In this document: one piece after another, positions 25,886 through 63,519 of the stretch
Position numbering within the stretch: the stretch's first letter is position 1
Layout of the letters: the number at the start of each line of letters is the position of its first letter
Virus record (IMG/VR): IMGVR_UViG_3300021425_002620
Length of the DNA stretch: 64,000 bases
Strand: one strand, 5' to 3'
DNA from: a virus
Lineage: Duplodnaviria > Caudoviricetes
Made by a program: the position numbers and the translations under genes
Notes under the pieces: model-generated
What the model saw: the letters and a program-made list of their open reading frames with translations, nothing else
What the model was told of the DNA's origin: nothing
Database searches by the model: none

Positions 25886-25917
25886 AAAAAAAGCCCCTTG
25901 CTTTCGCTTGGGGCTTT
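25886..25917 (-). terminator. Intrinsic terminator (attenuator 3:4 hairpin) abutting tRNA-Trp
   Basis: AAAGCCCC-AA-GC-GAAA-GC-AA-GGGGCTTT followed by T run (7 T in total), ending right at the tRNA-Trp 5' end. Confidence 0.9.
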
Positions 25918-26001: not shown

Positions 26002-26030
26002 GTAAGTATCCTTTTGTTTAGTATGTTACT

Positions 26031-26059
26031 ACTATAGTATCAGTATTTAGCTTTGTCAA
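26031..26059 (-). promoter_or_regulatory. Sigma70-type promoter of the leader/tRNA operon
   Basis: TTGACA-N17-TATAGT, with a late-like CTAAATA inside the spacer. Confidence 0.8.
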
Positions 26060-26067
26060 CCATTATT

Positions 26068-26196
26068 TTAAGATGCAGCGTAAATTATAAATACCGGTAG
26101 CATTAAAATTAGTGCTGGAACTGCCGTTGCCGATATTGCCTCACAAATTTCGCAAACTGATCGATTATTTTTTAATCTAATTATCAAGTCCGTCAT
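26068..26196 (-). CDS. Small membrane protein (42 aa, MTDLIIRLKNNRSVCEICEAISATAVPALILMLPVFIIYAAS)
   Basis: Hand-translated; CxxC followed by a hydrophobic helix; last of a chain of overlapping micro-ORFs. Confidence 0.55.
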   Translation of the reverse strand: MTDLIIRLKNNRSVCEICEAISATAVPALILMLPVFIIYAAS

Positions 26197-26338
26197 TAGT
26201 TTTGTTTTCTCCTGTATGTCTGTGTTGTCGTTCGGCTTCTCTCATTGCTAGAACATATCTTAGATCATGCATAGGAGCATATTTTAGGTAAACAAAAGAA
26301 ACAATTATACAAGCAATAAAAATTAAGAATTCTATCAT
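26177..26338 (-). CDS. Small membrane protein (53 aa, MIEFLIFIACIIVSFVYLKYAPMHD...)
   Basis: Hand-translated; GGAGG SD and ATGA overlap. Confidence 0.6.
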   Translation of the reverse strand: MIEFLIFIACIIVSFVYLKYAPMHDLRYVLAMREAERQHRHTGENKTNDGLDN

Positions 26339-26448
26339 TCCTCCTCCTCATCCTGCATTGGTTGTTTCCTCCATTGCCAACCTGTATTCCAAGGTAGTAT
26401 CCAATAATGAAAAAACCATTCTGCCCAACTTTTTTTCTGTGTTATCAT
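26335..26448 (-). CDS. Trp-rich microprotein (37 aa, MITQKKSWAEWFFHYWILPWNTGWQWRKQPMQDEEEE)
   Basis: Hand-translated; GGAG SD, ATGA overlaps on both sides. Confidence 0.55.
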   Translation of the reverse strand: MITQKKSWAEWFFHYWILPWNTGWQWRKQPMQDEEEE

Positions 26449-26552
26449 AGTGGATTTACTCCGTATAAAGTCATCAAAAAAATACTCACTAGAAATCCTA
26501 CTTCAATACGATCTCGTAGTGTACTTTCGTCTAACAGTTTTTTTGATTTCAT
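26445..26552 (-). CDS. Small membrane protein (35 aa, MKSKKLLDESTLRDRIEVGFLVSIFLMTLYGVNPL)
   Basis: Hand-translated; first of the micro-ORF chain. Confidence 0.5.
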   Translation of the reverse strand: MKSKKLLDESTLRDRIEVGFLVSIFLMTLYGVNPL

Positions 26553-26646
26553 TTATAATTAGTAGTTATAATATATTATAATCATATATTATGTTTTTCA
26601 CGCTTATTTATCATTTAGAATAAAAAAACAGTAGAAAACTGGTAGT

Positions 26647-26925
26647 TTAAATATTATCAGGCGGAGCATAGGTTTCAGCAAGAGGTTTGTAACTTGCAGG
26701 ATATTTAGACAACGTTAATTGTTCACCGTCCCAAATGCACCAAATTGAAGGACGCACACCTACTTTAAATTCATGTACTTCGTAATCTCCTAAGAGAGAC
26801 TCAGGAAGTATATTGCCTTTGCGATCTCGCATTGGCCCTGTTCCACTAATGTATGTAACCTGGGCACTACCCCATCTATTCCACGCTTCATCAACTAGAT
26901 CAAAGCAGTCTGTCATGTGTTCCAT
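26647..26925 (-). CDS. Hypothetical protein
   Basis: AAGGA SD directly after tRNA-Ala. Confidence 0.6.
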   Translation of the reverse strand: MEHMTDCFDLVDEAWNRWGSAQVTYISGTGPMRDRKGNILPESLLGDYEVHEFKVGVRPSIWCIWDGEQLTLSKYPASYKPLAETYAPPDNI

Positions 26926-26939
26926 ACTATTTCCTTATT

Positions 26940-27015
26940 TGGTGGAGCCGACAGGGGTCGAACCTGCGACCTTCTGGATGCAAACCAGACGCTCTCCCAA
27001 CTGAGCTACGGCCCC
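26940..27015 (-). tRNA. tRNA-Ala(TGC)
   Basis: GGGGCCG...CGGCTCC-A-CCA with G3:U70, anticodon arm TCTGG-TT-TGC-AT-CCAGA. Confidence 0.95.
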
Positions 27016-27021
27016 TTAAAC

Positions 27022-27097
27022 TGGTGCCGGATGCAAGAGTCGAACTCGCGACCTTCTCATTACAAGTGAGCTGCTCTACCAACTGAGCTAATCCGGC
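27022..27097 (-). tRNA. tRNA-Thr(TGT)
   Basis: GCCGGAT...ATCCGGC-A-CCA, anticodon arm GCTCA-CT-TGT-AA-TGAGA (G27-A43 mismatch). Confidence 0.92.
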
Positions 27098-27098
27098 T

Positions 27099-27173
27099 TT
27101 ATCTTTTTACTCTACAATTAGGACAAAAGTCATTGTATCCTAACTCTGTCTTACATTCTGGACAAGTATTCAT
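27099..27173 (-). CDS. Zinc-ribbon microprotein (24 aa, MNTCPECKTELGYNDFCPNCRVKR)
   Basis: Hand-translated; AGGA upstream, two CPxC motifs, fills the tRNA-Ser/tRNA-Thr spacer. Confidence 0.65.
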   Translation of the reverse strand: MNTCPECKTELGYNDFCPNCRVKR

Positions 27174-27193
27174 ATTTTACTTATCCTAGTTTT

Positions 27194-27283
27194 TGGCGGA
27201 GAGTGAGGGATTCGAACCCTCGATACGCTTTCACGTATGCACCCTTAGCAGGGGTGTGCTTTCGACCACTCAGCCAACTCTCC
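27194..27283 (-). tRNA. tRNA-Ser(GCT)
   Basis: GGAGAGT...ACTCTCC-G-CCA, long variable arm, anticodon arm CACCC-CT-GCT-AA-GGGTG. Confidence 0.95.
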
Positions 27284-27344
27284 AATTACACTCCTAGTTT
27301 ATCAGTCTAGTGCAAGTTGCTATGCTTCCTGCTGAGTGTAAAAT

Positions 27345-27420
<76 letters not shown>

Positions 27421-40961: not shown

Positions 40962-41138
40962 ATGAAGCAAGATCCAGAACTAATAAGTCAACCCGAGGGC
41001 GCGATGATATATGAAAAATGTGTGGTGTGCGGCCATGCATGTCATCACGGGGATGTCTGCAAAGTTAAGGACTGTTCTTGCGGAGTTTGCTATCACGAAG
41101 TTGAAGAGGTAGATGATTATATAAACATGGAGGGCTAA
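40962..41138 (+). CDS. Cys/His-rich microprotein (58 aa)
   Basis: Hand-translated CVVCGHACHHGDVCKVKDCSCGVCYH; late box 5 nt upstream; TAATG-coupled to the next gene. Confidence 0.65.
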   Translation: MKQDPELISQPEGAMIYEKCVVCGHACHHGDVCKVKDCSCGVCYHEVEEVDDYINMEG

Positions 41139-41416
41139 TGGATTTTTTATCATTAGTAAGTGAAGTAGGATTTCCTATTGCGGGGGCTATTGCGGCAGGA
41201 TATTTTGTATATCTTACACTAAGATTTATTTTAGCAGGTGTTACTGGATCGGTAACTACACTTAAAAATATCATAGGACAACTAGACAATCGTGTACAAA
41301 CAATGAACAACGATCTTGTTAAAATAGATGCACTACTATCTTATACACTTGGTGTAAAACCCAATGTGGATCGTATTGCAGCAAACGAAGGTAAAGAAGA
41401 CGCAAGGAGAGATTAA
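41138..41416 (+). CDS. YvrJ-like single-TM coiled-coil protein, paralog 1
   Basis: SEVGFPIAGAIAAGYFVY motif. Confidence 0.65.
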   Translation: MDFLSLVSEVGFPIAGAIAAGYFVYLTLRFILAGVTGSVTTLKNIIGQLDNRVQTMNNDLVKIDALLSYTLGVKPNVDRIAANEGKEDARRD

Positions 41417-41547: not shown

Positions 41548-41910
41548 ATGGAAGCTGACCTCGCAACAACAATTAAGGATTTAGGATTCCCAATAGTGGC
41601 AGCACTAGGAATGGGATACTTCATCTACTTCATTTGGAAGTGGGTAACAGAAACTATTGATCCTATTATTGGCGAGACAATGGGAACACTTATTAAACTA
41701 GTTGACCGTGTTCGTATGTTAGATAATGATATGATACGTATGAATATGAAACTAGCAATGGTGTTAGAGCATAGACATTTATTAGAAGAAAAATTGTCGC
41801 CAGAACAAGTTAGCGAACTAGATGAAATAATTACTCGTTACCAAAGTAGAAATAACGAATTTGACTCTACAGGGAAAGCTCCGGGAGGAAGCGATGAGCC
41901 AAAAAAGTAA
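41548..41910 (+). CDS. YvrJ-like single-TM coiled-coil protein, paralog 2
   Basis: KDLGFPIVAALGMGYFIY motif; DRV..LDND shared with paralog 1 (NRV..MNND). Confidence 0.65.
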   Translation: MEADLATTIKDLGFPIVAALGMGYFIYFIWKWVTETIDPIIGETMGTLIKLVDRVRMLDNDMIRMNMKLAMVLEHRHLLEEKLSPEQVSELDEIITRYQSRNNEFDSTGKAPGGSDEPKK

Positions 41911-42200: not shown

Positions 42201-44240
42201 TTATTTACTCTGCGCTATAAACACACCGTTCCAATCTTTAGGTAACTTTTGCGTTTTCTGGAACTCACAGCGTTCAATCCACATTTTATAATAACCTTCC
42301 ATTTTTCCATCAAAATGCCGCATAAGTTTATTACATTCTGTAATTGCTTGATCAAACTTTTGTGCTCTATAACAATCGTGCATACGTTCGTGTATTTCTT
42401 TGCTTTTTAGTTGTGCAGGTGTTCCAGCAATATCTAATACTGTATAAATGCTTAGTCCAACACTTTTACCTTTAACTTGTAGATCATCTACTTTTAAGTA
42501 GAAGAAGTCATTTTTAGTTTCTTTGTAGGTTGATTCTCCGACAAGGAGTAAGCATCCGTATTCTTTACACTTTGACTCAATTCTTGCTGCTGTGGAAACA
42601 GCGTCTCCCAAAACGTCATATGAGTGTCTTTTTGTTGAGCCCATTTCACCAAGATATCCAAGGCCTGTGTTGATACCGGCTCCCATTCCAACTGGCGGCC
42701 TTCCTTCTGCTGTAATTTTGTCATTAAACTTCTCCACTGCTCGCAACATTTCTAGCCCACATTGTACTGCTGTTTTAGGATGATCTGGATCTTCTATAGG
42801 TGCATTATGTATATGCATACTTGCATCGCCTATGTATTTGATAATCATTCCGTCCATATCAAGTACAGGCTGTGTGATAGCATCCATATATCCATTCATG
42901 ATTTTTGTTAGTCCTTTAACATCGTCGCCAAAACTTTCACCTAATGGTGTAAAGCCACGCAAGTCTGAGAATAAAATACTAACTTCTCGTTTCATACCTT
43001 CTTTAATAAGTGCAGGATTTTCTTGTAATAGTCTTACTACAGTAGGTGATGCATAACCTGCAAACTGTTTCTTTATCGCTTGTTTTTCAAGGAACTCACG
43101 AACAAACTTAATTCCGTATACTTGTAATGCAATAATAACCAAAGTAATGATAGGTGCTGTAACATCAATTAACGCCTTTTCTGTTGCAAACATATGCCAT
43201 GAGTAAGGTAGTACTCCACTAATTAATCCTACTGTAACTACTAGTCCTACTAGCATCCATCGACTGAGTAAAATCAATAATAAACCACCTATAGCAAGCC
43301 CTACAAGCTCTGCTGTTGGCGCCCAGTCAGGTCGTTGTATATTTGTACCGTTAAACATTGTACCTATTACTGCGGCTTGGGTAGTACCTGCAAACTGTGC
43401 GCCTGTTGCTGTAGGAACAGGATTAGCAATACCTGCTGCTGTTACATCTACAATAACAACTGCTCCGCCAAAATCACTAGGCAAGTCTGCTACACTTACA
43501 CGTTTTGATTGTTGACTCCAGTCAATCCACACACGCCCTTCTGAATCAGTAGGTATAGGACCAAACTGAGGTATACGCATTTTTTCTACGCCAAACTGAT
43601 TTAACTTAATTTGAAAGTTTGGATCGCCTGCTATAACACGCAGTGTTTCTAATGCTAAACTAGGATATAATGTGCCGTCAACTACTGCTACAGTTGGCAT
43701 ACGTCTTACTACACCGTCAATTTCGGGCTCTGTACTTACAATACCTGCTCCAACACTGCTGTTTTCTAGTATAGGAATATTAGCAATAATGCCACCATAT
43801 GGAAGTATACGATCTAAGTATTGAGGTTGTAGAATTGCTGCTCCAGGATTAATAGGCAAGTTAACAGTTTTATCGCTAGGACGACTTGCTAGTATTACAG
43901 GCAATGCCATCATAGTTTCTGCTAATTCTGTATCACCTCCAAAGCGATCTTTTTCAGGCATCATTACGTTCCATATAACTATACCTGCTCCTCTGTTATA
44001 TAGATCTTTTATAATGTCTGAATATATGTTTCTAGGAAAAGGATACTGTCCGTAAATCTCTAATGCAGCATCGTCTATTTCTGCTACATAGATATTGTTT
44101 TCTACAGGTTCCTGATTTACAATAAGTTGATCAAAATAATTTAATTTAACACTTTGGAAAAAAGCAGGCGGTGTCATAAACAAATATATTAGAGCAGATA
44201 GTGTTAATAATGCCCACCACGGACTTAGTAATTTTTTCAT
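42201..44240 (-). CDS. CHASE2-domain class III adenylate/guanylate cyclase
   Basis: N-terminal TM, CHASE2 (IDDAAL..YGQYPFPR, DGVVRR), three TM helices, cyclase motifs SILFSDLRGFT, IKYIGDA, GAGINTG, YDVLGDAVSTAARIE. Confidence 0.93.
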   Translation of the reverse strand: MKKLLSPWWALLTLSALIYLFMTPPAFFQSVKLNYFDQLIVNQEPVENNIYVAEIDDAALEIYGQYPFPRNIYSDIIKDLYNRGAGIVIWNVMMPEKDRFGGDTELAETMMALPVILASRPSDKTVNLPINPGAAILQPQYLDRILPYGGIIANIPILENSSVGAGIVSTEPEIDGVVRRMPTVAVVDGTLYPSLALETLRVIAGDPNFQIKLNQFGVEKMRIPQFGPIPTDSEGRVWIDWSQQSKRVSVADLPSDFGGAVVIVDVTAAGIANPVPTATGAQFAGTTQAAVIGTMFNGTNIQRPDWAPTAELVGLAIGGLLLILLSRWMLVGLVVTVGLISGVLPYSWHMFATEKALIDVTAPIITLVIIALQVYGIKFVREFLEKQAIKKQFAGYASPTVVRLLQENPALIKEGMKREVSILFSDLRGFTPLGESFGDDVKGLTKIMNGYMDAITQPVLDMDGMIIKYIGDASMHIHNAPIEDPDHPKTAVQCGLEMLRAVEKFNDKITAEGRPPVGMGAGINTGLGYLGEMGSTKRHSYDVLGDAVSTAARIESKCKEYGCLLLVGESTYKETKNDFFYLKVDDLQVKGKSVGLSIYTVLDIAGTPAQLKSKEIHERMHDCYRAQKFDQAITECNKLMRHFDGKMEGYYKMWIERCEFQKTQKLPKDWNGVFIAQSK

Positions 44241-44351
44241 TATAATATTCCTAAATAAACAGCATACCTATTAAAAATCCAATATTAAGTCCTAGTGAAC
44301 AATACAATAAAAGATCTTTCCCATAACTGTAAGGTTGGTATTCTACTTCGT

Positions 44352-44651
44352 TCATGCCCTTCTTCCCATTAGTTTTGCTTTTAACGCATTCATTTCTGCA
44401 TCTCTGCTTGTTTTTTCAGATGTTGTACCCAAGTCTTTTTGCGTAACATTTGTTTCCTTGGGTTGGCGTATATCTCTGGGTGTCGAATAACGATTAAGTC
44501 GTCTGTTCTGTTCTGCAATTCTTCTTCTGATATCTCGAACTTTGGCTTCAAGATCCACGGTACTATTTTGTCTGTCACTGTTTGCCCTTTCTGCGACTGT
44601 GTCTGTCGCGCCCTTATTTCCACAAATGATTCTGCACAACCATTGCCTCAT
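44352..44651 (-). CDS. Basic hypothetical protein
   Basis: Perfect TATAAATA 4 nt before ATG. Confidence 0.55.
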   Translation of the reverse strand: MRQWLCRIICGNKGATDTVAERANSDRQNSTVDLEAKVRDIRRRIAEQNRRLNRYSTPRDIRQPKETNVTQKDLGTTSEKTSRDAEMNALKAKLMGRRA

Positions 44652-44789
44652 AACGTATTTATATTACACCTAAGAAGGCTAGCCTAAGAATTGCTAGCCA
44701 AGCTGTTACTGATACTAACAGCCACAAGTAATGTCTATAAGTTGTGTCCTTATAGTGCCACATTTATACGCCCTCTAAACGTATTTATT

Positions 44790-45473
44790 TTAATTATTAC
44801 GATTAACTGTGACTGAACAGCCACCTAATGTTGCACAAGTACCTGTAATGCTAAATGAATCAGAAGCAGTAGTAACATTTTGAGTAAGAGTATAATTGTA
44901 GGCTCCGCCACCGTTTGTTAGATCTATTGCGGCACTTGCACTTTTGCTTCCACGCTGATCAACATCTACACTATGACCATCACCTGTAAGAACTATGTCA
45001 GCCCACTTTTGTCCGCCGTTGCCTCTTTGCAGTAAATCTACAGTATTACCGTCGCCTTGTATTTCTACAAATCCATCGTGTCCTGCTTTGCCCATTTGTA
45101 TGTGTTCAACTGTATTGCTGTCACCATTTACAATGTTTGCTAGATGATGCGGTGCTCCGCCTCCGCCACCTCTATTTTCATCTGTTTGATAACTGGCTAC
45201 TGTGTTTCCATCTCCAGTTACAGTCCAGTATGCTTCGTGGCCGCCTGTTTCGTCTTGATCTATTGTACCATCTTTGTGCATGCCTTGACGTATTGTAATA
45301 TTATTGTTTGGTCCAGTAGAATTCAAACTAACGTAGTTGTCTACACTACGTTGTTGTATTTCTAAGTCGAGATTATCTCCACTTTGTGTTACATAAATTT
45401 CGTTAGCACTACTTTTGAATGATATTAATGTTGTTGTTACCAACACCAAGAAGGTAGTCATAAACTGCTTCAT
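44790..45473 (-). CDS. Secreted curlin-repeat protein (CsgA/B-like), start MKQFMTT
   Basis: Signal peptide; repeated x-G-D-(G/S)-N-T-V-x-x-x-Q units (TGDGNTVASYQ, NGDSNTVEHIQ, QGDGNTVDLLQ, TGDGHSVDVDQ). Confidence 0.75.
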   Translation of the reverse strand: MKQFMTTFLVLVTTTLISFKSSANEIYVTQSGDNLDLEIQQRSVDNYVSLNSTGPNNNITIRQGMHKDGTIDQDETGGHEAYWTVTGDGNTVASYQTDENRGGGGGAPHHLANIVNGDSNTVEHIQMGKAGHDGFVEIQGDGNTVDLLQRGNGGQKWADIVLTGDGHSVDVDQRGSKSASAAIDLTNGGGAYNYTLTQNVTTASDSFSITGTCATLGGCSVTVNRNN

Positions 45474-46542
45474 CGCCTTGCTCCACGTTAAGTTTGTATC
45501 CATAATTTCCGTTCAAATATAAATCTATTGTATTTTCTACACTAGAATCTTGTCTTTTAATATGCCACATAGGATCTTCGTAATCTAAGAAAAATCCTGT
45601 TTCTTCGTCATAACCTAATTGACGCTGTCTAAAAAATTCTTGGTTTTGAGCTTCTAGTTCGTCTTTAAAACTATTTAGTAATGCTTGATTAAGAGCATCT
45701 ATCATATCAACAAGTATTTCTCTAAGATAATAATCTGCTCCTTTATCTAATTCTGTTACCCAAATATCTTTAATGCTATCAGCTAGTGCATCTTGATCAA
45801 GATCATCAAATTTTAAAAAATCAAAATCTAATACACTTACACTAGCTTCTTGTTGCAGCTCTTTTTCTATTGCTGCATCAATAGGATCTTTACGCCTTAC
45901 AATAAGCATACCAGTAATTTGTGGCTCTGTTAGCTCAACAATAATAGGAGGGCTAGGAGACTTCCAAAGACTTTCTACACGAGTCATTTGGAATGGTTGA
46001 TTCATTATAACCATTCCTGCATCATTCTCAACACTAATTTCACCTGTCACGCACTCTAACTCTACGCCGTTTTCTGTTTGACAACTAGGTAATAGTGTTA
46101 CATAACTTTCGCCTATTTCATTTACAATCATAGCAAAGTCTGTACCACGAACTGATATAGTTGCAGTTGGTGTTCTTAGTCTTACATTTTGTCTTGAGTT
46201 TTTTGCAATTTGTCCACTTGCATAACGAACAGCACCTAGTGTTGCTCGCATATCTAACACGCCCTTGCCCGAAGCTGGATCATATATAAATTCATCAATA
46301 ACAACTCTACTATGATCAACTACATCAAGTCGAGTGTCATCAACAAAATCAATACGCATTTTACCTGCATTAGTAACGGCTTCGTCCAATTGTTGGACGC
46401 TAGTGCCTACTTCGTTACCTGCATTGTTTCTGTCGCGTAAGATTTGTCCATCCCCGTCTAGTTCAGTAACGGTACCAATTGAGGACTGTGCCGCAGATGC
46501 GACAGAGAAAAATAAACTAAAGAGTAAGACTAGCACTCTCAT
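45409..46542 (-). CDS. Secreted FecR-domain protein
   Basis: Signal peptide; IDFVDDTRL...SRVVIDEFIYD, GAVRYASG, TPTATISVRGTDF FecR motifs. Confidence 0.88.
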   Translation of the reverse strand: MRVLVLLFSLFFSVASAAQSSIGTVTELDGDGQILRDRNNAGNEVGTSVQQLDEAVTNAGKMRIDFVDDTRLDVVDHSRVVIDEFIYDPASGKGVLDMRATLGAVRYASGQIAKNSRQNVRLRTPTATISVRGTDFAMIVNEIGESYVTLLPSCQTENGVELECVTGEISVENDAGMVIMNQPFQMTRVESLWKSPSPPIIVELTEPQITGMLIVRRKDPIDAAIEKELQQEASVSVLDFDFLKFDDLDQDALADSIKDIWVTELDKGADYYLREILVDMIDALNQALLNSFKDELEAQNQEFFRQRQLGYDEETGFFLDYEDPMWHIKRQDSSVENTIDLYLNGNYGYKLNVEQGDEAVYDYLLGVGNNNINIIQK

Positions 46543-46549
46543 ACTAGTC

Positions 46550-47305
46550 TTAATCTATTTGTGTGATGTCAATAGTACTACCGTTTGTTGTAGCATCAAT
46601 ATCAATAACGTTATCGTATACTCCGCCTTGCGAAATAGTGAATACATTGCCGCCGCCTGTTAAATCTAGATTGATAAAGTGGCCGTTTGCATCTCCATCG
46701 CCGTCTACGTCGATATCAATAATGTTACCTGCATTAGATGCACTCAAACTTACGTCTGTAGCACTAGTTGCGCCTGTTGTGTGTAAACTTGCACTATTAT
46801 TAACAACAACTGTGATATCTGAATCAACACCATCAACATCTGCATCAACTACGTTGTCGTCACCTGTTACTGTAAACGCAACTGTTGACGAACCTGCGTC
46901 TGCATTTTCGCCGATGTAGAATTTAAATGTGTTATCGTCACCTGTAGTTGTAATATCTAGTTGTACACTTTCACAATTTCCTGCACCTGCTGTTCCTAAA
47001 CTGTCACACTTCATGTCTACGACATTAGTATTGCCAGTGAAACTCCAAGTACCTGTGTATGAATCACCATTGATGATTGCTGCAATATCATTAGTATCAC
47101 CTGTTTGGGTAATAGAAAATACCATGCTGTCACCTGTTAAAGTCACACCCGTGGTGCTGTCACCAAACTGGTTATTCTGCCCATCTTGAGTAATGTCTAA
47201 ATCTAAGCTATCACCAACTTGCGTAATGTAAATATCATTCGCTAGGGCTGGTGTCGCTAGTAGCACTGTCATCAACGCCGATAATGTCAACGTCTTCAAC
47301 TTCAT
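46550..47305 (-). CDS. Secreted curlin-repeat protein (CsgA/B-like)
   Basis: Signal peptide (ALA-ND); IYITQVGD, ITQDGQNN, ITQTGDTN, TGDDNT, TGDDNV, ISQGGVYDN repeats. Confidence 0.75.
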   Translation of the reverse strand: MKLKTLTLSALMTVLLATPALANDIYITQVGDSLDLDITQDGQNNQFGDSTTGVTLTGDSMVFSITQTGDTNDIAAIINGDSYTGTWSFTGNTNVVDMKCDSLGTAGAGNCESVQLDITTTGDDNTFKFYIGENADAGSSTVAFTVTGDDNVVDADVDGVDSDITVVVNNSASLHTTGATSATDVSLSASNAGNIIDIDVDGDGDANGHFINLDLTGGGNVFTISQGGVYDNVIDIDATTNGSTIDITQID

Positions 47306-48107
47306 AACTTCCCTCCTGTTGGAACTTCCAAAGTCCCTTTCTTTCGCCTTCGTAAACTAGTTCAACTACCGCTTGCTCGATAGCAGCCCTCGTAGCATAA
47401 TTTACGGGCTCATTAACTGAAAAACCTGTTTCAGTCTCGAGTAACTCAGTTCCCATGTCCAAGAACTTAAATACATCCGCTCCGGACTGGTGGCTTGCAA
47501 TCGTTTTTTCGGTTGCAATACTTAAAAGTACTTTCCCTGTACTTACACTTACAATTCTTAAAGAAATTGTAACTGTATCGATGCGATATTGCGTATTTGC
47601 GCCAACACCTAACCATCTTGCGCCGACACCGCCTACTGCGACATTACTATCGTAGCCAATTATCCCCCCTTCTAATAAAAGTCCTGCAAATAGCAAGGGT
47701 TTTAATTGTGGTGCATCTGGGCCTTCGTATTGATCTCTAGTCTGTCTTATTAGTTGTCTTTCTTTGATAAGATTGTCCATCCCTACTCGCTCAACTACGT
47801 CAAACCATCCTTCGTCGCCTACATCTTGCAGAGCCTTAATTACCCAAACTTCTCCACCTTGCGTGACTGCTGAGCTTAATTTTGCTACACCGTCACTTGG
47901 TTTACGTTGTCCTGTTTTATCACTAAACTGATAAACAGCAATAGTAATTTTAGGTCCGTCAATTTTTGGTACATCTTCAAGACGTTGCTGAATTGGAGAT
48001 GGTTGTACTATCGGTGATGTCTCTGCTTCCTGTAGTTTTAATAAACTCGGAGTCATTGCACAACCGCCTAGTAGAGCTAAAGATAGTACGAGAAACAGAT
48101 GCTTCAT
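47235..48107 (-). CDS. csgG: Curli assembly/transport outer-membrane lipoprotein
   Basis: Lipobox LGGC; IAVYQFSDKTGQRKP, AVTQG, VVERVGMDNLIKERQLIR, GGIIGYDSN, TQYRID.VTISLR. Confidence 0.93.
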   Translation of the reverse strand: MKHLFLVLSLALLGGCAMTPSLLKLQEAETSPIVQPSPIQQRLEDVPKIDGPKITIAVYQFSDKTGQRKPSDGVAKLSSAVTQGGEVWVIKALQDVGDEGWFDVVERVGMDNLIKERQLIRQTRDQYEGPDAPQLKPLLFAGLLLEGGIIGYDSNVAVGGVGARWLGVGANTQYRIDTVTISLRIVSVSTGKVLLSIATEKTIASHQSGADVFKFLDMGTELLETETGFSVNEPVNYATRAAIEQAVVELVYEGERKGLWKFQQEGSYEVEDVDIIGVDDSATSDTSPSE

Positions 48108-48559
48108 TAGAAACTAAAGTCTCCTTCTGCCGGAATAGTAATCTCTGTAACTGTGCCATCTTCTTGGACAATAGTTATAGTGATCATTCCGTCTGCCTTT
48201 ACCCAAGTAATTGTTGACCCTTCAATCTCTGCTGTGCCTGTGTTAGAACATGTATCTGTGCAATCAGCAAACATAGCGTCAACCATCTGTTTGGATAATT
48301 GGGCATATATTCTTGATTCAACATTCCGAATAAACTTATTCAAAATGCTATTTTCTAGCTCACGTTCAATTCTTCTAGCCTCTGCTTCTGCCTTGTCTTT
48401 AATATCTTGCTTGCGATTGAACGATAATTGTTCTGTACTTAAAACGTGTGCAGAATAACCTTGTCCACTAAAACTTGGGTTTTTAAATCCCCAAACTAAT
48501 TCGCTTGCCTGAGCTACAGAGCTCATAAAGAACAACGTGAGTACGGCATATTTAATCAT
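48107..48559 (-). CDS. csgF: Curli assembly protein CsgF-like
   Basis: Signal peptide then ASELVWGFKNPSFSG; C-terminal ITIVQEDGTVTEITIP. Confidence 0.85.
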   Translation of the reverse strand: MIKYAVLTLFFMSSVAQASELVWGFKNPSFSGQGYSAHVLSTEQLSFNRKQDIKDKAEAEARRIERELENSILNKFIRNVESRIYAQLSKQMVDAMFADCTDTCSNTGTAEIEGSTITWVKADGMITITIVQEDGTVTEITIPAEGDFSF

Positions 48560-48607
48560 AATGGATTCCCTCTTTCATATATTTATTAAAACGTTGCCCT
48601 AATCACG

Positions 48608-48625
48608 TAAATACACTTGTATTTA
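48608..48625. promoter_or_regulatory. Palindromic divergent late promoters TAAATACA-CT-TGTATTTA
   Basis: Perfect 8-bp inverted repeat containing a TAAATA box on each strand; an extra AATAAATA (minus) at 48580-48587. Confidence 0.6.
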
Positions 48626-48632
48626 TCTGATG

Positions 48633-48678: not shown

Positions 48679-48927
48679 ATGAAAGATAAAATGACTGAAG
48701 ACGAATTACGAGCGGCTGAGCAAGATGCCCTTTGGAGAATATGTGAAGAACTAAGTGCCTATCATGATACAAGGCCTGTGGATTTGTCTCAAGAAGTTAG
48801 CGAATTAGAACAACAAGAGATTGAACGTGCATTAAGAGCGTGTGATGATAATCAAACAAAGGCAGCTAAATTATTAAAACTTAATCGCACTACACTTCTT
48901 GCTAAAATGAAAAAGTACAATATTTAA
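48679..48927 (+). CDS. Fis-family helix-turn-helix protein
   Basis: ELEQQEIERALRACDDNQTKAAKLLKLNRTTLLAKMKKY. Confidence 0.88.
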   Translation: MKDKMTEDELRAAEQDALWRICEELSAYHDTRPVDLSQEVSELEQQEIERALRACDDNQTKAAKLLKLNRTTLLAKMKKYNI

Positions 48928-50588
48928 GAAGCAATATATCCAGGTGTTGGCGTTTGCTGATCGTCGTTCCAGTTAAAGCCGCCGCCTGTTATAATTTTAT
49001 CTCCGCCCATTTGCTGTACTAAATCATCAGCGTCTTTAAAGATAACATAGTTTAGATTGTCTGTTCTAAGCAACATAACAGTAGTAATACCATCTGCTAA
49101 ATGATAACTTGAATACGCAATTTTAGAATATGCTATATTCATTTTCTTCATATCAACTGTACCGTCATCGTTAATAGCATCAGCAATAAGTTCGCCCGGA
49201 TTAAATGGTTTATGATGTTTGTTACCTGCTTGTTCTTTGCTTAACTTATCATAGTTTTGTACTAGTGCTTTGATAGTAGATTCAAAGAGTTCATATGTTT
49301 CTCTCTTGTTAGCATAAGGTTGTAAGACTTCAATATTAAGTGCTTTGAAACCTGAATTGTTCCAGTTGTATTTTGAACCTTCTTTTGCTTTCTTTTTGAT
49401 AACGTTATATCTATTACCGTTATACTTTCTTGCAGGTACTAGTTTTTCTGAACCATCTTTTTGTGTAACAGAGACTGTTGCGTCTTCTGGTGCATTCTGC
49501 ATTATTTGATTAATACCTTTTGCCCACGTAGACCAACCTGTTGTTGCTTTTGCAATAGCCTTACTATTAAATCGTCCACCAGTCTTTGCACTTGCTTTAA
49601 TTTCAACTTCTTCGTCACCTATCTTAAGATCACCCTTTTTGCCTTTTTCAGCAGGGTTACCCATCATTGACAGTGCCATTTCGCCTGGACCGATTGCACC
49701 TGATGTTGTACCTGGAGAATAACTAAAAATGTTTTCTTCAACAAATACATCAAACACTTTTTGGTATTTAGGATTTACATGATTCTTAATGTTACCCTCT
49801 GATCTACTAATAACATCAAGCATGTTAATAACATCGCCTTTTACACAGGCACCTAAAAAATCTTTTATTTCTTCACTTGTTACATCGCTGCCTTCTTGTA
49901 TGTCAAGTATTTTACCAAACAGTGCTTGCTTTAGTGTCTTGGTAAACTTTTCTGCATTAACAGCCATCTTTTTATATGAAGCTCTGTCTGTTGATGTCAT
50001 TGCAGAAGTGTCTGCATCTGCTGAATAGCCTTGTACCTTGTTTCCTAATGTGACAAGAATACCAGTTACTTCTTTTACAAAATTTATAGCTTCATCACGC
50101 TCTGATCTTGCTTGATCACGTTGCGCACGAACTACTTCAAATTCTTTTACTAATTGATCTAATGGTTTATTGATGTCTGCAATAACTTTTTCTTTTTGTG
50201 CATCATCAATAGGTAATTTAGCAACTGCCGAAACTGCATCTTTAATTTCTTTAATTGCTTTTTCAGCTCTTGCATCAGCTGCTTCATAATCCTTAATTGA
50301 ATATAACTTCTTTTGTACTTGTGGATTTGCTTTAGCTTCTTGTTGTTGTGGTTGTGGAGCAGACTTTGCTTGATTTGTAACTCTGTTAACAAATGCTGTA
50401 ACATCTTTAGCCATTTTTTCTAGTTTAGAAACTAGAGTCATTTTAGCATCTACTTTTTCAGTAGGTATTTGTGATATAGAAGAACTAATGGCTTCTAAAT
50501 CGTGTAACGTGTGTTGTGTTTCTAAACCAGCATTAGCTGCTTTATTTTCTGCAAGTTGAATTGATACTTTGATGTCACTAAAACGCAT
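48924..50588 (-). CDS. Coiled-coil protein with possible C-terminal PD-(D/E)xK-like nuclease domain
   Basis: GPGEMAL...KGDLKIGDEEVEIKAS motif; late box and SD upstream. Confidence 0.5.
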   Translation of the reverse strand: MRFSDIKVSIQLAENKAANAGLETQHTLHDLEAISSSISQIPTEKVDAKMTLVSKLEKMAKDVTAFVNRVTNQAKSAPQPQQQEAKANPQVQKKLYSIKDYEAADARAEKAIKEIKDAVSAVAKLPIDDAQKEKVIADINKPLDQLVKEFEVVRAQRDQARSERDEAINFVKEVTGILVTLGNKVQGYSADADTSAMTSTDRASYKKMAVNAEKFTKTLKQALFGKILDIQEGSDVTSEEIKDFLGACVKGDVINMLDVISRSEGNIKNHVNPKYQKVFDVFVEENIFSYSPGTTSGAIGPGEMALSMMGNPAEKGKKGDLKIGDEEVEIKASAKTGGRFNSKAIAKATTGWSTWAKGINQIMQNAPEDATVSVTQKDGSEKLVPARKYNGNRYNVIKKKAKEGSKYNWNNSGFKALNIEVLQPYANKRETYELFESTIKALVQNYDKLSKEQAGNKHHKPFNPGELIADAINDDGTVDMKKMNIAYSKIAYSSYHLADGITTVMLLRTDNLNYVIFKDADDLVQQMGGDKIITGGGFNWNDDQQTPTPGYIAS

Positions 50589-50616: not shown

Positions 50617-51309
50617 TTATACTATTTTAGGAAATAACATATCCGTGCAGAATTTATCTACATCTGCTTCTGGTAATCCTAAACTTTTCATTGTACGTGG
50701 AGTGTGCGGATTTTGTTGTTGATTATGACAGTAATAGTTTTGTGCGGCAGCAACTAATGGTACTTCACCTGAACCATCGCTTTGACCTATTTCATCAAAA
50801 TATGCACGAAGATTGTTTAATGCTAGTTCTACGATAGCAACTGCTTCTTCTTCAGTGTTTACATTACCTGCGGCAACCATTTTATCAGTAAAAATATTTT
50901 TAGCCCACTGCGGAAGCTCACGTTGTTTCTTAGGAATAAAATCTGCTACTGCTTCATAATAGCCTTGTATCATATCATGATCTTCATTGGTAGTAGGAGA
51001 AAAATCATGGAATGCTCCTGTCATTTTATTCTTACCTGCAATCACATCAAAGCCATATATTGGTCCGTCATTATTTAAATTAGGAAAGACACATACATGC
51101 ATCATCCAAAGGCCTTTGCTATCTCTAGCATCCACAACGTCAATGTGTGCCCTGCGAACACTACTGTTAGCCCACACACGGTTAATCCAACCGTTATCAG
51201 GTTGGTTAAAAGCATCAAGTCCTTCTTCATTATATTCTGTTGCTTTTTCGTTGAATATATTTATAATTTCGTCTTGACATTCAATTAGTTTAGTCCAAAT
51301 AATACTCAA
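50617..51309 (-). CDS. Ferredoxin-dependent bilin reductase (PcyX/PcyA-like), TTG start
   Basis: RRAHIDVVD, WMMHVCVFP, PIYGFDVIAG, TGAFHDFSP, RELPQWAKNIFT, QQQNPHTPR motifs; GGAGG SD 6 nt before TTG 51309; adjacent to heme oxygenase. Confidence 0.88.
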   Translation of the reverse strand: MSIIWTKLIECQDEIINIFNEKATEYNEEGLDAFNQPDNGWINRVWANSSVRRAHIDVVDARDSKGLWMMHVCVFPNLNNDGPIYGFDVIAGKNKMTGAFHDFSPTTNEDHDMIQGYYEAVADFIPKKQRELPQWAKNIFTDKMVAAGNVNTEEEAVAIVELALNNLRAYFDEIGQSDGSGEVPLVAAAQNYYCHNQQQNPHTPRTMKSLGLPEADVDKFCTDMLFPKIV

Positions 51310-51859
51310 GAGCAACCTCCATCATTTCTTGAAATAATTCTGTAGCAGATGTAAACACCCATTTGGCTTCTTCTGCTTGTCCGTCGTGTGTATATGTTCT
51401 TAAATTTTCTTTAAGATCTTTTACATCACCTTTAAACTGATACATGCGGCCTTCACCAGGTATCTTCTTTTTAATCATTTGCCCGCCACTAAGGTCACCC
51501 ATATGTAGTACATATACGTGTGCCATAAGCAGGTCTTTGTTGTCTTTAATTTCTTCAATTCTATCTAAGTACTTCCAAGTACTAGGTAGTGTTATTGGTG
51601 TCCTATTAGCAATGTCCCAAAGCTCTTGCCAATCATCTTCTATCTTTTTCATTTGTTTGATGTCAAATAATTTTAAATCATCTGCCCAAACACCTAACTG
51701 ATCTAATGCTTCTTCGAGTGCTTCGTACTTCTTCCATTGATTATATAAGTATGTTGCATAAAAATCAGGATTGATTTTACCACTCATTAATACTTTGACA
51801 AACTCTTGTCTTTCGGCGTTTTGGTGATGCTCCCAAGTTAGCTCTTTTAAATTGCTCAA
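51290..51859 (-). CDS. hemO: Heme oxygenase (TTG start)
   Basis: LKELTWEHHQNAE (proximal His), AHVYVLHMGDLSGGQMIKK, EEAKWVF. Confidence 0.92.
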   Translation of the reverse strand: MSNLKELTWEHHQNAERQEFVKVLMSGKINPDFYATYLYNQWKKYEALEEALDQLGVWADDLKLFDIKQMKKIEDDWQELWDIANRTPITLPSTWKYLDRIEEIKDNKDLLMAHVYVLHMGDLSGGQMIKKKIPGEGRMYQFKGDVKDLKENLRTYTHDGQAEEAKWVFTSATELFQEMMEVALEYYLD

Positions 51860-52174
51860 TTAGTCCTCCTCTTCCATTTTGATTTGCAATGGAAAGCCTT
51901 TTTGTCTACTTGCCTGAACAGCTTCGTTGGTCTTTGTTTCAGCAATTTCAAAACTATACACGCCTGCTATTCCACTTCCTTCTGTATGTATCGTCATTGT
52001 AAGTTGTTCTGCAGAAATATGGCTGTGTTTGAATACAACAGTAAGTAATTCTATTACCCATTCTACCGGAGTATGATTATCATTTAAAAAAATAACTTTG
52101 TAGCGTTTTGGAACTTCAACAGTCTTTTCTATTTTTTCATCAATTTGAATATCTTCTACAATATCTGTACTCAT
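51860..52174 (-). CDS. clpS: N-degron adaptor ClpS
   Basis: YKVIFLNDNHTPVEWVI, MTIHTEGSGIAG, FPLQIKME. Confidence 0.93.
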   Translation of the reverse strand: MSTDIVEDIQIDEKIEKTVEVPKRYKVIFLNDNHTPVEWVIELLTVVFKHSHISAEQLTMTIHTEGSGIAGVYSFEIAETKTNEAVQASRQKGFPLQIKMEEED

Positions 52175-52191
52175 TTATTTTTCCTTAAAAT

Positions 52192-52217
52192 GTTAGGGGA
52201 GACAATGCTCCCCTAAC
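52192..52217 (-). terminator. Stem-loop between hsp20 and clpS
   Basis: GTTAGGGGAG-6nt-CTCCCCTAAC, 10-bp stem, weak U tail. Confidence 0.55.
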
Positions 52218-52224
52218 AACTCTA

Positions 52225-52683
52225 TTACTCGACTTCGCCGTTAATTACAGGTGAACCAACATTGATGTTGATTTTCTTAGGTTGTAGTTCTTCAGGTACT
52301 TCACGAACTAAAGTAATGTTTAACATACCTAGTTCAAGATTTGCCTGCTCTACTTCCATATGATCTGCAAGTGTAAATTCTCTACGGAAATTACGTCCTG
52401 CAATACCTTTGTGCAAGTAATTTACATCATCGTCACCCTTTGGTGCTAAACCTTCTACACGAAGAATATTACCCTCTTTAGTAATATCCAACTCGTCCAT
52501 AGCAAAGCCTGCAACGGCAAGTGAGATTACATACTCATCATCAGATATCTGTACAATATTATACGGAGGATATCCTGTTGATTGTGAATTAGAAAATTGT
52601 CTTTCTAATTCGTTAAACATTCTATCAAAGCCAATTGTGGCCCTGTGAAAATGTGGTAGGTCTAAAGTTGTTAGTCTTGTCAT
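52225..52683 (-). CDS. ibpA: Small heat-shock protein (Hsp20, IbpA-like)
   Basis: IGFDRMF, YPPYNI, LAVAGF, YLHKGIAGRNFRREFTLAD, LGMLNITL. Confidence 0.95.
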   Translation of the reverse strand: MTRLTTLDLPHFHRATIGFDRMFNELERQFSNSQSTGYPPYNIVQISDDEYVISLAVAGFAMDELDITKEGNILRVEGLAPKGDDDVNYLHKGIAGRNFRREFTLADHMEVEQANLELGMLNITLVREVPEELQPKKININVGSPVINGEVE

Positions 52684-52740
52684 TTTATTTCTCCTTATTA
52701 AGCAAGATTAATGTGTAGAGCCCAAATGGCACTCTACACA
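52684..52740 (-). promoter_or_regulatory. ROSE-like RNA thermometer in the hsp20 5' UTR
   Basis: UCUUGCU-UAAUA-AGGAGA hairpin pairing the SD with a bulged G, preceded by a 5' hairpin; late box at 52743-52750. Confidence 0.7.
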
Positions 52741-52748
52741 ATTATTTA

Positions 52749-54644
52749 TTAAGATGCTTCGTCAAACTCTGCATCAATTATATCCTCAGCTTCAATTGGA
52801 CCTTCGTCTGTTGCTGCTGAAGAATCTTTTTGCTGTTTAGCCGCCATTACTGCGCCGGCTGCGGTAGCAAACTCCGTGATCTTAGCGTTGATAGCATCTG
52901 TATCATCGCCTTTAACTGCTTCTTCTAATGCATCACGTGCTTCAGTATAAGCAGTAACTTGTTCTTCTGTTAAGTCTGCTTGCACTTCTTCAAAGTCACG
53001 GTTGGCTTGAGCAATGTGTTGCTCTGCACCATTACGTGCTTCAACAAGGGCTCTACGCTTCTTGTCTTCTTCTGCATTAGCTTCTGCATCTTTCACCATT
53101 TGTTCAATTTCAGACTCAGACAAGCCGCCGTCACTTTGAATAGTTAACTTTTGTTCTTTGCCTGTGCCTTTGTCTGTAGCACTTACACTTAGAATACCGT
53201 TTGCATCAATATCAAATTTTACTTCAATTTGAGGAATACCACGCATTGCTGGTGCAATACCTTCTAAGTTAAACATGCCAAGATGTTTGTTATCTCTGAT
53301 AAACTCACGCTCACCTTGTGCTACATTAATTGTAACTGCTGGTTGGTTGTCTTCTGCTGTTGAGAAAACTTGTGACTTTGATGTAGGAATAGTTGTATTC
53401 TTATCAATCAATTTAGTCATAATGCCACCCATTGTTTCAATACCTAGTGACAATGGAGTAACGTCTAATAATAGTACGTCCTGCTTGTCGCCTGCTAGTA
53501 CTGCACCCTGGATCGCTGCACCTGCTGCAACTGCTTCATCTGGATTTACATCCTTGCGTGGAGCCTTACCAAAGTATTTTTCAACAGCCGTTTGTACTGC
53601 TGGCATACGTGTTTGGCCACCTACAAGAATAACTTCGTCAATGTCACTTGGCTTTAGTCCTGCATCTTTAACTGCAACTTTACATGGCTCAATTGAACGT
53701 GCAACAAGGTCATTCACCATTGCTTCGTACTTTGAACGTGTAAGGTTAATAGCCATATGCTTAGGACCACTAGCATCAGCAGTCACATACGGAAGGTTAA
53801 TTTCAGTTTGTTCTGTGCTTGATAGTTCTACTTTTGCCTTTTCTGCCGCTTCCTTCAAACGCTGAAGAGCCATTTTATCTGTCGATAGATCAACAGCATC
53901 TGACTTTTTAAATTCTGCAATCAAATAGTCAATAATTGCTTGGTCAAAATCTTCACCGCCTAAGAATGTGTCGCCGTTTGTAGCAAGAACTTCAAACTGC
54001 TTTTCACCGTCAACATCTGATATTTCAATAATTGAGATATCAAAAGTACCACCACCTAAGTCGTATACTGCAATCTTCTTATCACCTTTGCCGCCTTTAT
54101 CAACACCATATGCTAGTGCTGCTGCCGTTGGCTCGTTGATAATACGTAGGACTTCAAGACCTGCAATCTTACCAGCGTCTTTAGTTGCTTGACGTTGCGA
54201 GTCGTTAAAGTATGCAGGAACTGTAATAACTGCTTGTGTTACAGGCTCACTTAGATATGCTTCTGCATCTTGTTTAATTTTGCGTAGGATTTCTGCACTA
54301 ATTTGCTGTGGTGCATACTTTTCTTCACCTACTTGTACCCATGCATCTTTGTTGTCTGCTTCGACAATTTTAAAGGGCATGTTTTTGATATCTTTTTGTA
54401 CTGCTTTGTCTTTGAACTTACGTCCAATCAAACGTTTTACAGCAAATACTGTACTATCTGCGTTTGTTACGCCTTGACGCTTTGCAGTAGTACCTACTAG
54501 AACTTCACCGTCGTCCTTATAGGCAACAATACTTGGGGTAGTTCTGTTACCTTCTTTGTTTTCGATGATTTTATATGATGATCCGTCTACAATAGATAGA
54601 CATGAATTTGTTGTACCGAGATCGATACCGATTACTTTTGCCAT
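52749..54644 (-). CDS. dnaK: Chaperone DnaK (Hsp70)
   Basis: [57 protein letters not shown]. Confidence 0.98.
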
Positions 54645-62999: not shown

Positions 63000-63087
63000 T
63001 TTATTATTTCCTTTATTTTTGTTTGCCACCTGGCAAACACAATACTTACTTATGATGGATAACTATTTTTATGTTTAATTCTGGCAG

Positions 63088-63113
63088 AAAAGAAAAGCAC
63101 CCGAAGGTGCTTT
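63088..63113 (-). terminator. Intrinsic terminator after tmRNA
   Basis: AAAGCACC-TTCG-GGTGCTTT then TCTTTTC (UUCG loop). Confidence 0.85.
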
Positions 63114-63114
63114 C

Positions 63115-63480
63115 CTGCTATTTTTGGTAACAAGGTATAACTACCCCGTAGCGATCACGCCGCTAATGCAAAGTTTTCGTTTGCGTTTGTTTTGTTTCTT
63201 GCGTTAACCGAGCTTGCGCCGGACAACTCCACTCATCTATGCCGTGTATCGATCCTAGTTCGCCCCCATCATAAAAACACTATCCACAACACTTTGGCTT
63301 TTGTCTGCCTGCTCTCCAAGCACGGAAATCGATAACCCATTTCGTCACACACATTCCTAGTAGTGCGGCTAAACTTGTGTATTGTATTCCTGTCCAAATT
63401 AATGCCATTATAGTGTCCTTATGGTGGAGGCGCCGGGTACCGCCCCCGGGTCTACTCCGTCGTCAAATTGCTTCAACATT
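63115..63480 (-). ncRNA. ssrA: Circularly permuted two-piece tmRNA (alphaproteobacterial type)
   Basis: Acceptor piece ends GACCCGGGGGCGGTACCCGGCGCCTCCACCA (3' end 63422); coding piece starts GGGGGCGAACTAGGATCGA at 63267; tag reading frame ANENFALAA-TGA at 63184-63155; outer ends approximate. Confidence 0.93.
63280..63408 (-). CDS. 42-aa putative membrane peptide inside the tmRNA intervening segment (MALIWTGIQYTSLAALLGMCVTKWVIDFRAWRAGRQKPKCCG)
   Basis: Hand-translated; TAAGGA SD 7 nt before ATG, immediately after the acceptor CCA. Confidence 0.6.
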   Translation of the reverse strand: MALIWTGIQYTSLAALLGMCVTKWVIDFRAWRAGRQKPKCCG

Positions 63481-63486
63481 GTATAT

Positions 63487-63519
63487 TATTTATAACACAC
63501 TCAGACCGAGTAAGTCAAG
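63487..63519 (-). promoter_or_regulatory. Composite promoter of tmRNA: perfect late box TATAAATA (63494-63487) with TTGACT upstream
   Basis: Read directly; overlaps the stop of the upstream ORF. Confidence 0.7.

Follow-up and report, generated by a model that had tools for sequence, protein, structure and literature searches.

Organization of the gene cluster

The stretch of viral DNA described here (IMG/VR record IMGVR_UViG_3300021425_002620; 64,000 nucleotides (nt) in full, hereafter the window) is a piece of a large marine T4-like phage, a setting supported by its PHROG matches, which include ligase, endonuclease and tail-fibre families, by eight tRNAs and a transfer-messenger RNA, and by its relatives Melnitz and HTVC008M. 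The minus strand of the window carries a cluster of six genes related to those of curli, or type VIII, secretion systems (T8SS). Along this strand the cluster begins with csgF (48107–48559; 150 amino acids (aa)), which is matched by PF10614 (E = 6e-17) and phrog_35372 (1.5e-51). It continues with csgG (47235–48107; 290 aa; PF03783, E = 2e-51), the curlin-like gene curA (46550–47305; 251 aa; Curlin_rpt, E = 0.013), a FecR-domain gene (45409–46542; 377 aa; PF04773, E = 1e-6; phrog_37870, 6.5e-91) and curB (44790–45503; Curlin_rpt, E = 2.5e-8). For curB, the likely start is at 45473, Met11 of the longest open reading frame (ORF), which gives a protein of 227 aa. The sixth gene (42201–44240) encodes a 679-aa cyclase with CHASE2 (PF05226, 3e-31) and Guanylate_cyc (PF00211, 4e-17) domains and a match to phrog_35576 (2e-177). 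A preliminary description, made from the sequence alone, had placed csgF, csgG, two curlin genes, a FecR gene and a CHASE2 cyclase gene here, and all six were recovered at these positions with Pfam and PHROG families in agreement. As that description held, each of the five genes from csgF to curB overlaps or abuts the next, with the csgF stop codon overlapping the csgG start. The cyclase gene, in contrast, does not continue this arrangement and is separated from curB by a 549-nt spacer.

Among cultured phages, the cluster is most closely related to those of Methylophilales phage Melnitz and Pelagibacter phage HTVC008M (KC465899), both of which contain the six genes in the order csgF-csgG-curlin-FecR-curlin-cyclase; all six are annotated in the GenBank record of Melnitz (MZ577097). 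Such phages had been described as mostly devoid of the subunit genes, and the operon was called partial, without CsgA and CsgB, by Zaragoza-Solas 2020 (PMC7029224) and Buchholz 2022 (PMC9004378). This picture is outdated: subunit genes are present in the Melnitz record, and CsgF, CsgG, one or two CsgA/B proteins, FecR and an adenylate cyclase were reported in pelagiphage myo- and podoviruses by Wittmers 2022 (PMC9599517). The gene set of the window is of this published pelagiphage T8SS kind, to which it adds one member. Relative to Melnitz and HTVC008M, the gene order and a pair of small membrane proteins beside the cluster are shared, with 33–58% amino-acid identity over the matched segments. 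The window differs from both in that its cluster is inverted with respect to the two small-protein genes and carries late-type promoter boxes of its own, in the 549-nt spacer with its small ORFs, and in an acidic C-terminal extension of CsgG.

A survey of IMG/VR found CsgG relatives on at least 588 contigs, and 80 of these loci were fetched. In nearly all of the 80, as far as the contig reaches, the order csgF-csgG-curA-FecR-(curB)-cyclase is kept. Hardly any locus lacks the genes for CurA, FecR or the cyclase; curB is missing from some, and many loci have additional genes between curB and the cyclase gene.

The CsgG pore and the CsgF cap

Residues 1–267 of CsgG match the E. coli CsgG structures (PDB IDs: 3x2r and 6l7a) at 2.5e-52, and the protein carries the lipobox LLGGC. 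CsgF matches PF10614 over profile positions 5–132 of 132, has a signal peptide that ends in AQA, and shares with its family a conserved N-terminal F-K-x-P-x-F-x-G-x-G-Y-S motif; no PDB sequence matched it at E ≤ 0.01. Based on these sequence matches, CsgG is assigned as an outer-membrane lipoprotein pore and CsgF as its cap. The constriction loop of the pore has diverged. Residues Y51, N55 and F56 of E. coli CsgG align to S, K and L in the phage protein, and among 66 phage CsgGs an L-S-S-A-V-T-Q-G motif is kept and the loop ahead of it is variable. The acidic C-terminal extension of CsgG in the window (~25 aa; 47235–47305) is missing from related phage CsgGs, and the region encoding it shares 71 nt with the beginning of curA.

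No Pfam family for CsgE, CsgC, CsgH or CsgD was found among the ORFs of the cluster. CsgE, CsgC and CsgD are also missing from alphaproteobacterial curli systems (PMC9599517), and the accessory proteins CsgE, CsgC, CsgH and CsgD would thus not be what defines a type VIII system. Compared with the E. coli Csg proteins (PDB IDs: 6l7a, 6si7 and 8enq), the phage cluster has in common the CsgG fold family, the CsgF family, the curlin kernel and a solenoid subunit. It differs in the constriction residues, in the absence of CsgE, CsgC and CsgD, and in its subunits, neither of which has an N22-like degenerate leader and one of which, CurA, has long, degenerate central repeats.

Two families of curlin-repeat subunits

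Both subunit families are classed by their sequences as curlin-repeat proteins. CurA, the conserved subunit, has a signal peptide followed by repeats of which the central ones are long, degenerate and contain a Cys pair. CurB, the variable subunit, also has a signal peptide, and its C-terminus carries a C-x5-C motif. The mature end of each protein opens with a perfect kernel strand (NDIYITQ in CurA and NEIYVTQ in CurB), in agreement with the curlin kernel signature N-x-ψ-x-ψ-x-Q (Sleutel 2023, PMC10192328). CurA contains three kernel motifs (shuffle p = 0.005) and CurB contains four, a number reached by none of 2,000 shuffles. Among family members, the Curlin_rpt profile matches 32 of 50 for CurA (6e-10 at best) and 27 of 31 for CurB (5.5e-25 at best), and the two families are homologous to one another (hhalign 99.85%, E = 1e-30). 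The assignment of CurA as a curlin accordingly comes from its family and from its homology to CurB, not from its own score. In the alignment of the CurA family, the Q-x-G and N positions are invariant in the N- and C-terminal repeats. A check with hidden Markov models, proposed earlier, thus agrees for CsgF, CsgG and CurB directly and for CurA through its relatives. A search of PDB sequences with CurB alone gave nothing useful.

The AlphaFold2 model of CurA is an all-β solenoid (predicted local distance difference test score (pLDDT) of 83.8, predicted template-modelling score (pTM) of 0.80), as had been anticipated when such a prediction was suggested. In an exhaustive structural comparison, the best matches of the model are β-helix and solenoid proteins, with Z scores up to 16.9, and the nearest clusters in the ESM Atlas are viral curlin-repeat proteins (template-modelling score of 0.83). 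A Foldseek search of the model against the PDB and Swiss-Prot models returned weak β-helix rows, none of them significant and none for CsgA. Based on the model, CurA is confidently predicted to fold as a β-solenoid.

CurB varies in length from 139 to 494 aa across its family, as set by the number of repeats. Some relatives of 484–494 aa (L024:6836–8290 and L082:5685–7169) have an extra N-terminal domain of ~250 aa before the curlin repeats, and one long relative matches ThuA (E = 5e-4). These sequences suggest that the long CurB relatives could be fibre subunits that display a globular domain.

N-terminal export signals are present on all five envelope proteins, and those of both subunits are of the Sec type. 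This finding bears on the proposal that the fibres might be associated with the virion. Since Sec signal peptides would take the subunits out of the cytoplasm, where virions assemble, such a role is unlikely.

The two subunit families also bear on a different use of the cluster, namely that CsgG, with or without CsgF, serves as a gated outer-membrane channel, a pinholin or a secretin that times lysis, with the curlin-like genes being accessory or vestigial (Buchholz et al. 2022). A constriction loop unlike that of E. coli would fit this proposal, as would the lack of clumping in Melnitz-infected cultures (PMC9004378) and the flanking pair of small coiled-coil proteins with N-terminal transmembrane segments, for which the Atlas gives a holin-like lead (YvrJ, BhlA/UviB). 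A vestigial subunit is hard to reconcile with two curlin families that keep signal peptides and kernel motifs across hundreds of contigs, and CsgF, which is dispensable for pore assembly, is conserved together with its N-terminal motif. It is also general knowledge that an outer-membrane pore cannot by itself depolarise the inner membrane. A pore that only serves the timing of lysis is considered quite unlikely.

A FecR-domain protein with a fold that resembles adhesin retention modules

The AlphaFold2 model of the FecR-domain protein begins with a signal-peptide helix and a FecR β-sandwich at residues 20–205 (pLDDT > 90), hereafter the FecR head. It continues with an acidic disordered linker (residues 211–273), a helix (residues 270–304) and a small β domain (residues 310–377). 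The protein ends in NNINIIQK, and the N-x-I-x-I-x-Q strand is conserved. Residues 50–215 resemble the cell-surface signalling domain (CCSSD) of PupR (PDB IDs: 6ovk, Z = 15.2, and 4m0n, Z = 14.3). In addition to this similarity, residues 19–113 superpose on PDB ID 5ix9 with a Z score of 8.8 (rmsd of 2.3 Å, 73 of 76 residues, 22% identity). This structure is the N-terminal retention module of the RTX adhesin MpIBP and served as the template for the LapA retention module (bioRxiv 10.1101/198937). The likeness to the LapA and MpIBP adhesins includes the superposition of the head on the retention module and a long flexible linker that follows the head. The phage protein differs from these adhesins in its length of 377 aa, in its Sec signal peptide, in its T8SS rather than type I secretion system (T1SS) context, and in its neighbour, which is a CHASE2 cyclase instead of LapD/LapG.

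With the FecR and PupR regulators, the phage protein has the periplasmic FecR-type β-sandwich in common. In place of their anti-sigma domain and transmembrane anchor, it has a cleavable signal peptide, and neither of the two elements appears in the model. The ORFs scanned at 39.5–50.6 kb include neither an extracytoplasmic function (ECF) sigma factor nor a TonB-dependent transducer. A role as an anti-sigma factor or iron regulator was accordingly rejected, given the signal peptide instead of a cytoplasmic domain and transmembrane segment and the lack of a partner sigma factor or transducer among the ORFs scanned. A curlin repeat in the C-terminal domain found no support from hhalign, which gave 4% with CurB and, with CurA, aligned the signal peptides only. 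The protein contains a single kernel motif (shuffle p = 0.07).

These observations also bear on the idea, raised in PMC7029224 and PMC9599517, that the module is an uptake channel. According to this idea, CsgG that is ungated for want of CsgE would admit larger nutrients or cofactors to the periplasm, with the FecR protein as an iron- or siderophore-linked regulator. The lack of CsgE among the ORFs of the cluster is as this idea would have it, and the name FecR suggests iron signalling. The domain structure of the protein, with a signal peptide and without the cytoplasmic anti-sigma domain and transmembrane segment, argues otherwise, as does the absence of ECF sigma factor and TonB-dependent transducer genes from the ORFs scanned. 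Moreover, the closest bacterial FecR relatives head adhesin-like proteins, not anti-sigma factors, and an uptake channel would leave two conserved subunit genes unexplained. An uptake function is thus considered highly improbable.

The CHASE2 cyclase

The cyclase, of class III, is predicted to be an inner-membrane protein with a transmembrane segment at residues 4–28, a periplasmic CHASE2 domain at approximately residues 29–305, three transmembrane segments between residues 306 and 381, and a cytoplasmic catalytic domain. In an alignment of 37 cyclase sequences, the metal-binding residues Asp426 and Asp472 are invariant, as are Lys468 and Arg553. Asp542 is present in the cyclase of the window, and bacterial and deeper phage sequences have Ser or Thr at this position. 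With Lys468 and Asp542 as the specificity residues, ATP is the predicted substrate, and the product is probably cyclic AMP (cAMP). The preliminary description had left the product as either cAMP or cyclic GMP (cGMP); these residues favour the former and speak against the latter.

A second substitution is found in the active site. The transition-state Asn is replaced by Ser549 in the clade of the window (27 of the 37 sequences), whereas bacterial relatives and the deeper phage clade have Asn. The Ser549 codon is located at 42595–42597, and Ser549 and Asp542 form a paired derived active-site change in this clade. A complex prediction for the CHASE2 domain (residues 29–305) and the FecR head (residues 20–205) gave a score of 0.00, which is evidence neither for nor against an interaction. 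A crude pattern match for a cyclic-nucleotide-binding signature, which does not amount to a proper search, gave no hit in the window for a cAMP receptor.

Bacterial relatives of the module

The FecR family profile was scanned over 185,579 species genomes. The genuine bacterial FecR loci number 55 and belong mostly to Alphaproteobacteria, Micavibrio and Bdellovibrio-like organisms; none of them has csgG, csgF or a curlin gene nearby. In at least 20 of the 55, a full-length CHASE2 cyclase gene adjoins the FecR gene, often together with HlyD and TolC-like genes. The bacterial FecR domain heads proteins of 700–3600 aa with FG-GAP, cadherin, Calx-beta or RTX repeats. Examples of this FecR-adhesin/CHASE2 module are loci L105, L110, L115, L116, L121, L123, L126, L128, L131, L136, L138 and L139, from Micavibrio, Sneathiella, other Alphaproteobacteria and Bdellovibrio-like metagenome-assembled genomes (MAGs). 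A literature search turned up no paper that ties CHASE2 to type I secretion. In the BiofilmReg operon of B. contaminans (PMC5192318), a secreted FecR-domain protein lies beside a CHASE2 sensor, as in the phage. In that system and in the S. meliloti CHASE2 cyclases CyaD1, CyaD2 and CyaK (PMC5498481), however, a histidine kinase forms the output or the cyclase is found on its own, and unlike in the phage, neither secretion pore nor fibre genes are involved.

A second set of relatives is provided by seven alphaproteobacterial csgFG loci, whose CsgG proteins are 42–50% identical to the phage CsgG. No FecR or CHASE2 gene is located within ~9 kb of these seven loci. One of the seven has the order csgF-csgG-curlin, as in the phage; this order is also common to the phage and the alphaproteobacterial curli loci of Dueholm 2012, as far as these are cited in PMC9599517. 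The one alphaproteobacterial curlin compared is very diverged from the phage subunits (hhalign 74% with CurB and 4% with CurA). The synteny with bacterial curli loci that had been proposed for comparison hence holds for the csgF-csgG-curlin order and not for the FecR/CHASE2 pair.

Taken together, the gene content suggests that the phage module looks like an alphaproteobacterial T8SS core joined to the FecR-head/CHASE2 pair of type I secreted adhesin modules. The bacterial adhesin/T1SS neighbourhoods and the fold of the head, which resembles a retention plug, point to FecR and CHASE2 as a borrowed secretion-linked sensor pair. A FecR protein that couples export status to a cyclase would fit these neighbourhoods.

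Alternatively, the cyclase and the FecR protein could be a signalling unit for host takeover that is unrelated to curli and merely shares a hypervariable island with it. The cluster does sit in a variable region, many loci have extra genes in the gap that separates curB from the cyclase gene, and in bacteria the FecR and CHASE2 genes occur without curli genes and the csgFG loci without FecR or CHASE2 genes. Against such independence, the FecR gene of almost every phage locus is flanked by the two subunit genes and overlaps or abuts them. The whole set stays together even where it is inverted relative to its neighbours, and it has moved as one between phage families (PMC9599517). An unrelated unit is thus very unlikely.

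Late-type boxes, occurrence and expression

Two ATAAATA boxes that resemble late promoters are located upstream of csgF on the minus strand (48580–48586 and 48620–48626). The proximal box ends 21 nt ahead of the csgF ATG, with a Shine-Dalgarno sequence (AAGAGGG) in between. Late-type boxes had been noted both upstream of csgF and after curB, and ATAAATA is indeed found at both sites, the latter at 44782–44788. A further box in the spacer, at 44656–44662, is a perfect TATAAATA. Neither TATAAATA nor ATAAATA is enriched across the window (22 ATAAATA observed versus 27 expected). Within 120 nt upstream of csgF, ATAAATA occurs in 25 of 58 distinct related loci, compared with 2.8% of random 120-nt windows, and in the related loci without a box a coding gene runs directly into csgF. 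Late expression of the cluster is plausible on the basis of these motifs.

The module has been described as alphaproteobacterial in origin, as transferred between phage families, and as present at all 65 GOV2.0 stations with matches in metatranscriptomes (PMC9599517). Five metagenome runs of seawater or marine origin, from four studies, contain a nearly identical locus (0.90–0.97 of the words sampled), and one of them may be the source of the window itself; estuary and wetland runs contain part of it. No RNA run was listed as a match to the whole stretch. Six metatranscriptome runs contain 6–11% of the csgG-curA words. Of four RNA runs compared, three gave one fully fitting contig each (241, 227 and 202 nt; three studies; 98.5–99.6% identity), which lies wholly inside csgG or curA, and the other parts of the cluster are uncovered. 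These contigs are a weak hint of expression.

Proposed function of the module

On balance, the cluster is probably a pelagiphage-type type VIII (curli) secretion module that the phage expresses in a host without curli genes. Late in infection, the subunits would cross the inner membrane via Sec and then pass unfolded through CsgG-CsgF. Once exported, they would polymerise into β-solenoid fibres on the infected cell. Either in the periplasm or held in the pore, the FecR-head protein would inform the CHASE2 domain about the state of the exporter, and this domain would set the output of cAMP. The FecR/CHASE2 pair would have been taken from bacterial modules in which genes for adhesins headed by FecR, for type I secretion and for CHASE2 cyclases lie together. 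The pay-off would most likely be an altered cell surface, through which cells aggregate ("sibling capture") or are shielded against other phages.

Several observations weigh against this proposal. No fibre has ever been seen from such phages, and Melnitz-infected cultures did not clump (PMC9004378). Since the constriction residues of E. coli are not kept in the phage CsgG, passage of the substrate is not guaranteed, and the ORFs of the cluster gave no CsgE, CsgC or CsgH. CurA of the window falls under the Pfam threshold for Curlin_rpt, and its profile reaches the curlin structures 8c50 and 8enq at E values of only 0.37 and 0.48. The replacement of the transition-state Asn by Ser may mean that cyclase activity is low or altered. 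Finally, RNA libraries can carry DNA, which limits what the metatranscriptome contigs may indicate.

A more specific arrangement for the FecR protein can also be imagined, in which it acts as a tether. Its head would plug the periplasmic side, the acidic linker would thread through CsgG-CsgF, and on the outside the small C-terminal β domain would cap the fibre, nucleate it or anchor it. The head could then report occupancy of the pore to CHASE2, and cAMP would read the state of export or of the fibre. This arrangement draws on the resemblance in fold, the length of the linker, the bacterial gene neighbourhoods and the conserved C-terminal N-x-I-x-I-x-Q strand, and it is unlikely in this detailed form. 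If true, it would be a secretion-sensing logic taken from a bacterial T1SS-adhesin module, one that has seemingly not been described.

Phages with the secretion module are abundant in the sea, and it would equip curli-less hosts with an entire surface-fibre export system. By giving such hosts fibre export, the module could alter how major ocean bacteria aggregate and form particles, as well as the competition between phages among them. To the published work, the present analysis adds the cyclase residues that point to cAMP, the likeness of the FecR head to retention modules, the CurA solenoid and the phrog_18771 pair described below. The cAMP-type cyclase, the kinship of the FecR head with adhesin retention modules and the obligatory small membrane pair provide pointers to the regulatory half of the system.

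Flanking genes and setting

Two paralogous small proteins of phrog_18771, each with an N-terminal transmembrane segment and a coiled coil, are encoded on the plus strand beside the cluster (41138–41416, 92 aa, and 41548–41910, 120 aa). The pair is located beside the cluster in 54 of 82 loci (the 80 fetched via CsgG together with Melnitz and HTVC008M). When the search was seeded from the 92-aa protein instead, 72 of 79 loci had genes of the cluster within 10 kb, and the remaining seven end less than 2 kb from the pair, so that the fraction is 72 of 72 assessable loci. The phrog_18771 pair thus always accompanies the curli cluster. Three arrangements of the pair and cluster are observed, among them the inverted one of the window. 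Among 50,697 phage records, the pair is found in Melnitz and HTVC008M only. The 92-aa protein is the better conserved of the two, with 79% identity to Melnitz and up to 97% in IMG/VR. Neither protein has a Pfam family or a histidine-kinase domain, and the nearest named Atlas clusters are the holin-like peptides YvrJ and BhlA/UviB (scores of 0.82–0.89), which serve as a lead only. A "histidine kinase, sometimes two" was placed before csgF by Wittmers 2022 (PMC9599517). This may be the phrog_18771 pair, in which no kinase domain was detected.

The features of the spacer between curB and the cyclase gene, a variable region, lie at 44352–44788 on the minus strand. In addition to the ATAAATA boxes, they comprise an ORF (44352–44651) for a basic, coiled-coil protein of 99 aa behind the perfect TATAAATA box and, as read by eye, two possible 34-codon membrane peptides that flank it. 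The 99-aa ORF has a homologue only in locus L004 and belongs to no Pfam or PHROG family.

On the other side of the cluster, a gene for an 82-aa Fis-type helix-turn-helix (HTH) protein (48679–48927, plus strand; HTH_8, E = 8.5e-12) is divergent from csgF. Of the 80 IMG/VR loci fetched via CsgG, 20 have a homologue on the strand opposite to the cluster, which is located ahead of csgF or else in between csgG and curA. The protein is possibly a regulator, or its gene a passenger. Just upstream of the cluster, a 554-aa protein (48924–50588, minus strand) has no Pfam or PHROG family, and only L031 and L078 have homologues at this position (65% identity).

The phage cluster was also encountered in MAGs labelled Rhodobacteraceae, Legionellales, Pirellulales, Polynucleobacter, Pelagibacter, Flavobacteriaceae, Luteolibacter and Bacteroidetes. 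Eleven matches to the FecR profile come from MAGs of unrelated phyla (L083–L093); the phage cluster is present in 10 of these, and the eleventh, L091 of an actinobacterial MAG, consists of a 1.6-kb FecR fragment only. These contigs are most likely phage contigs misbinned into bacterial genomes, which could mislead inferences of host or origin.

Finally, the window contains eight tRNAs and a two-piece transfer-messenger RNA (tmRNA) with the tag ANENFALAA, as well as a full-length DnaK and a bilin reductase-like gene (PHROG "ferredoxin oxidoreductase"). These features are spread over 50617–54644, 25537–27420 and 63064–63514, all on the minus strand.

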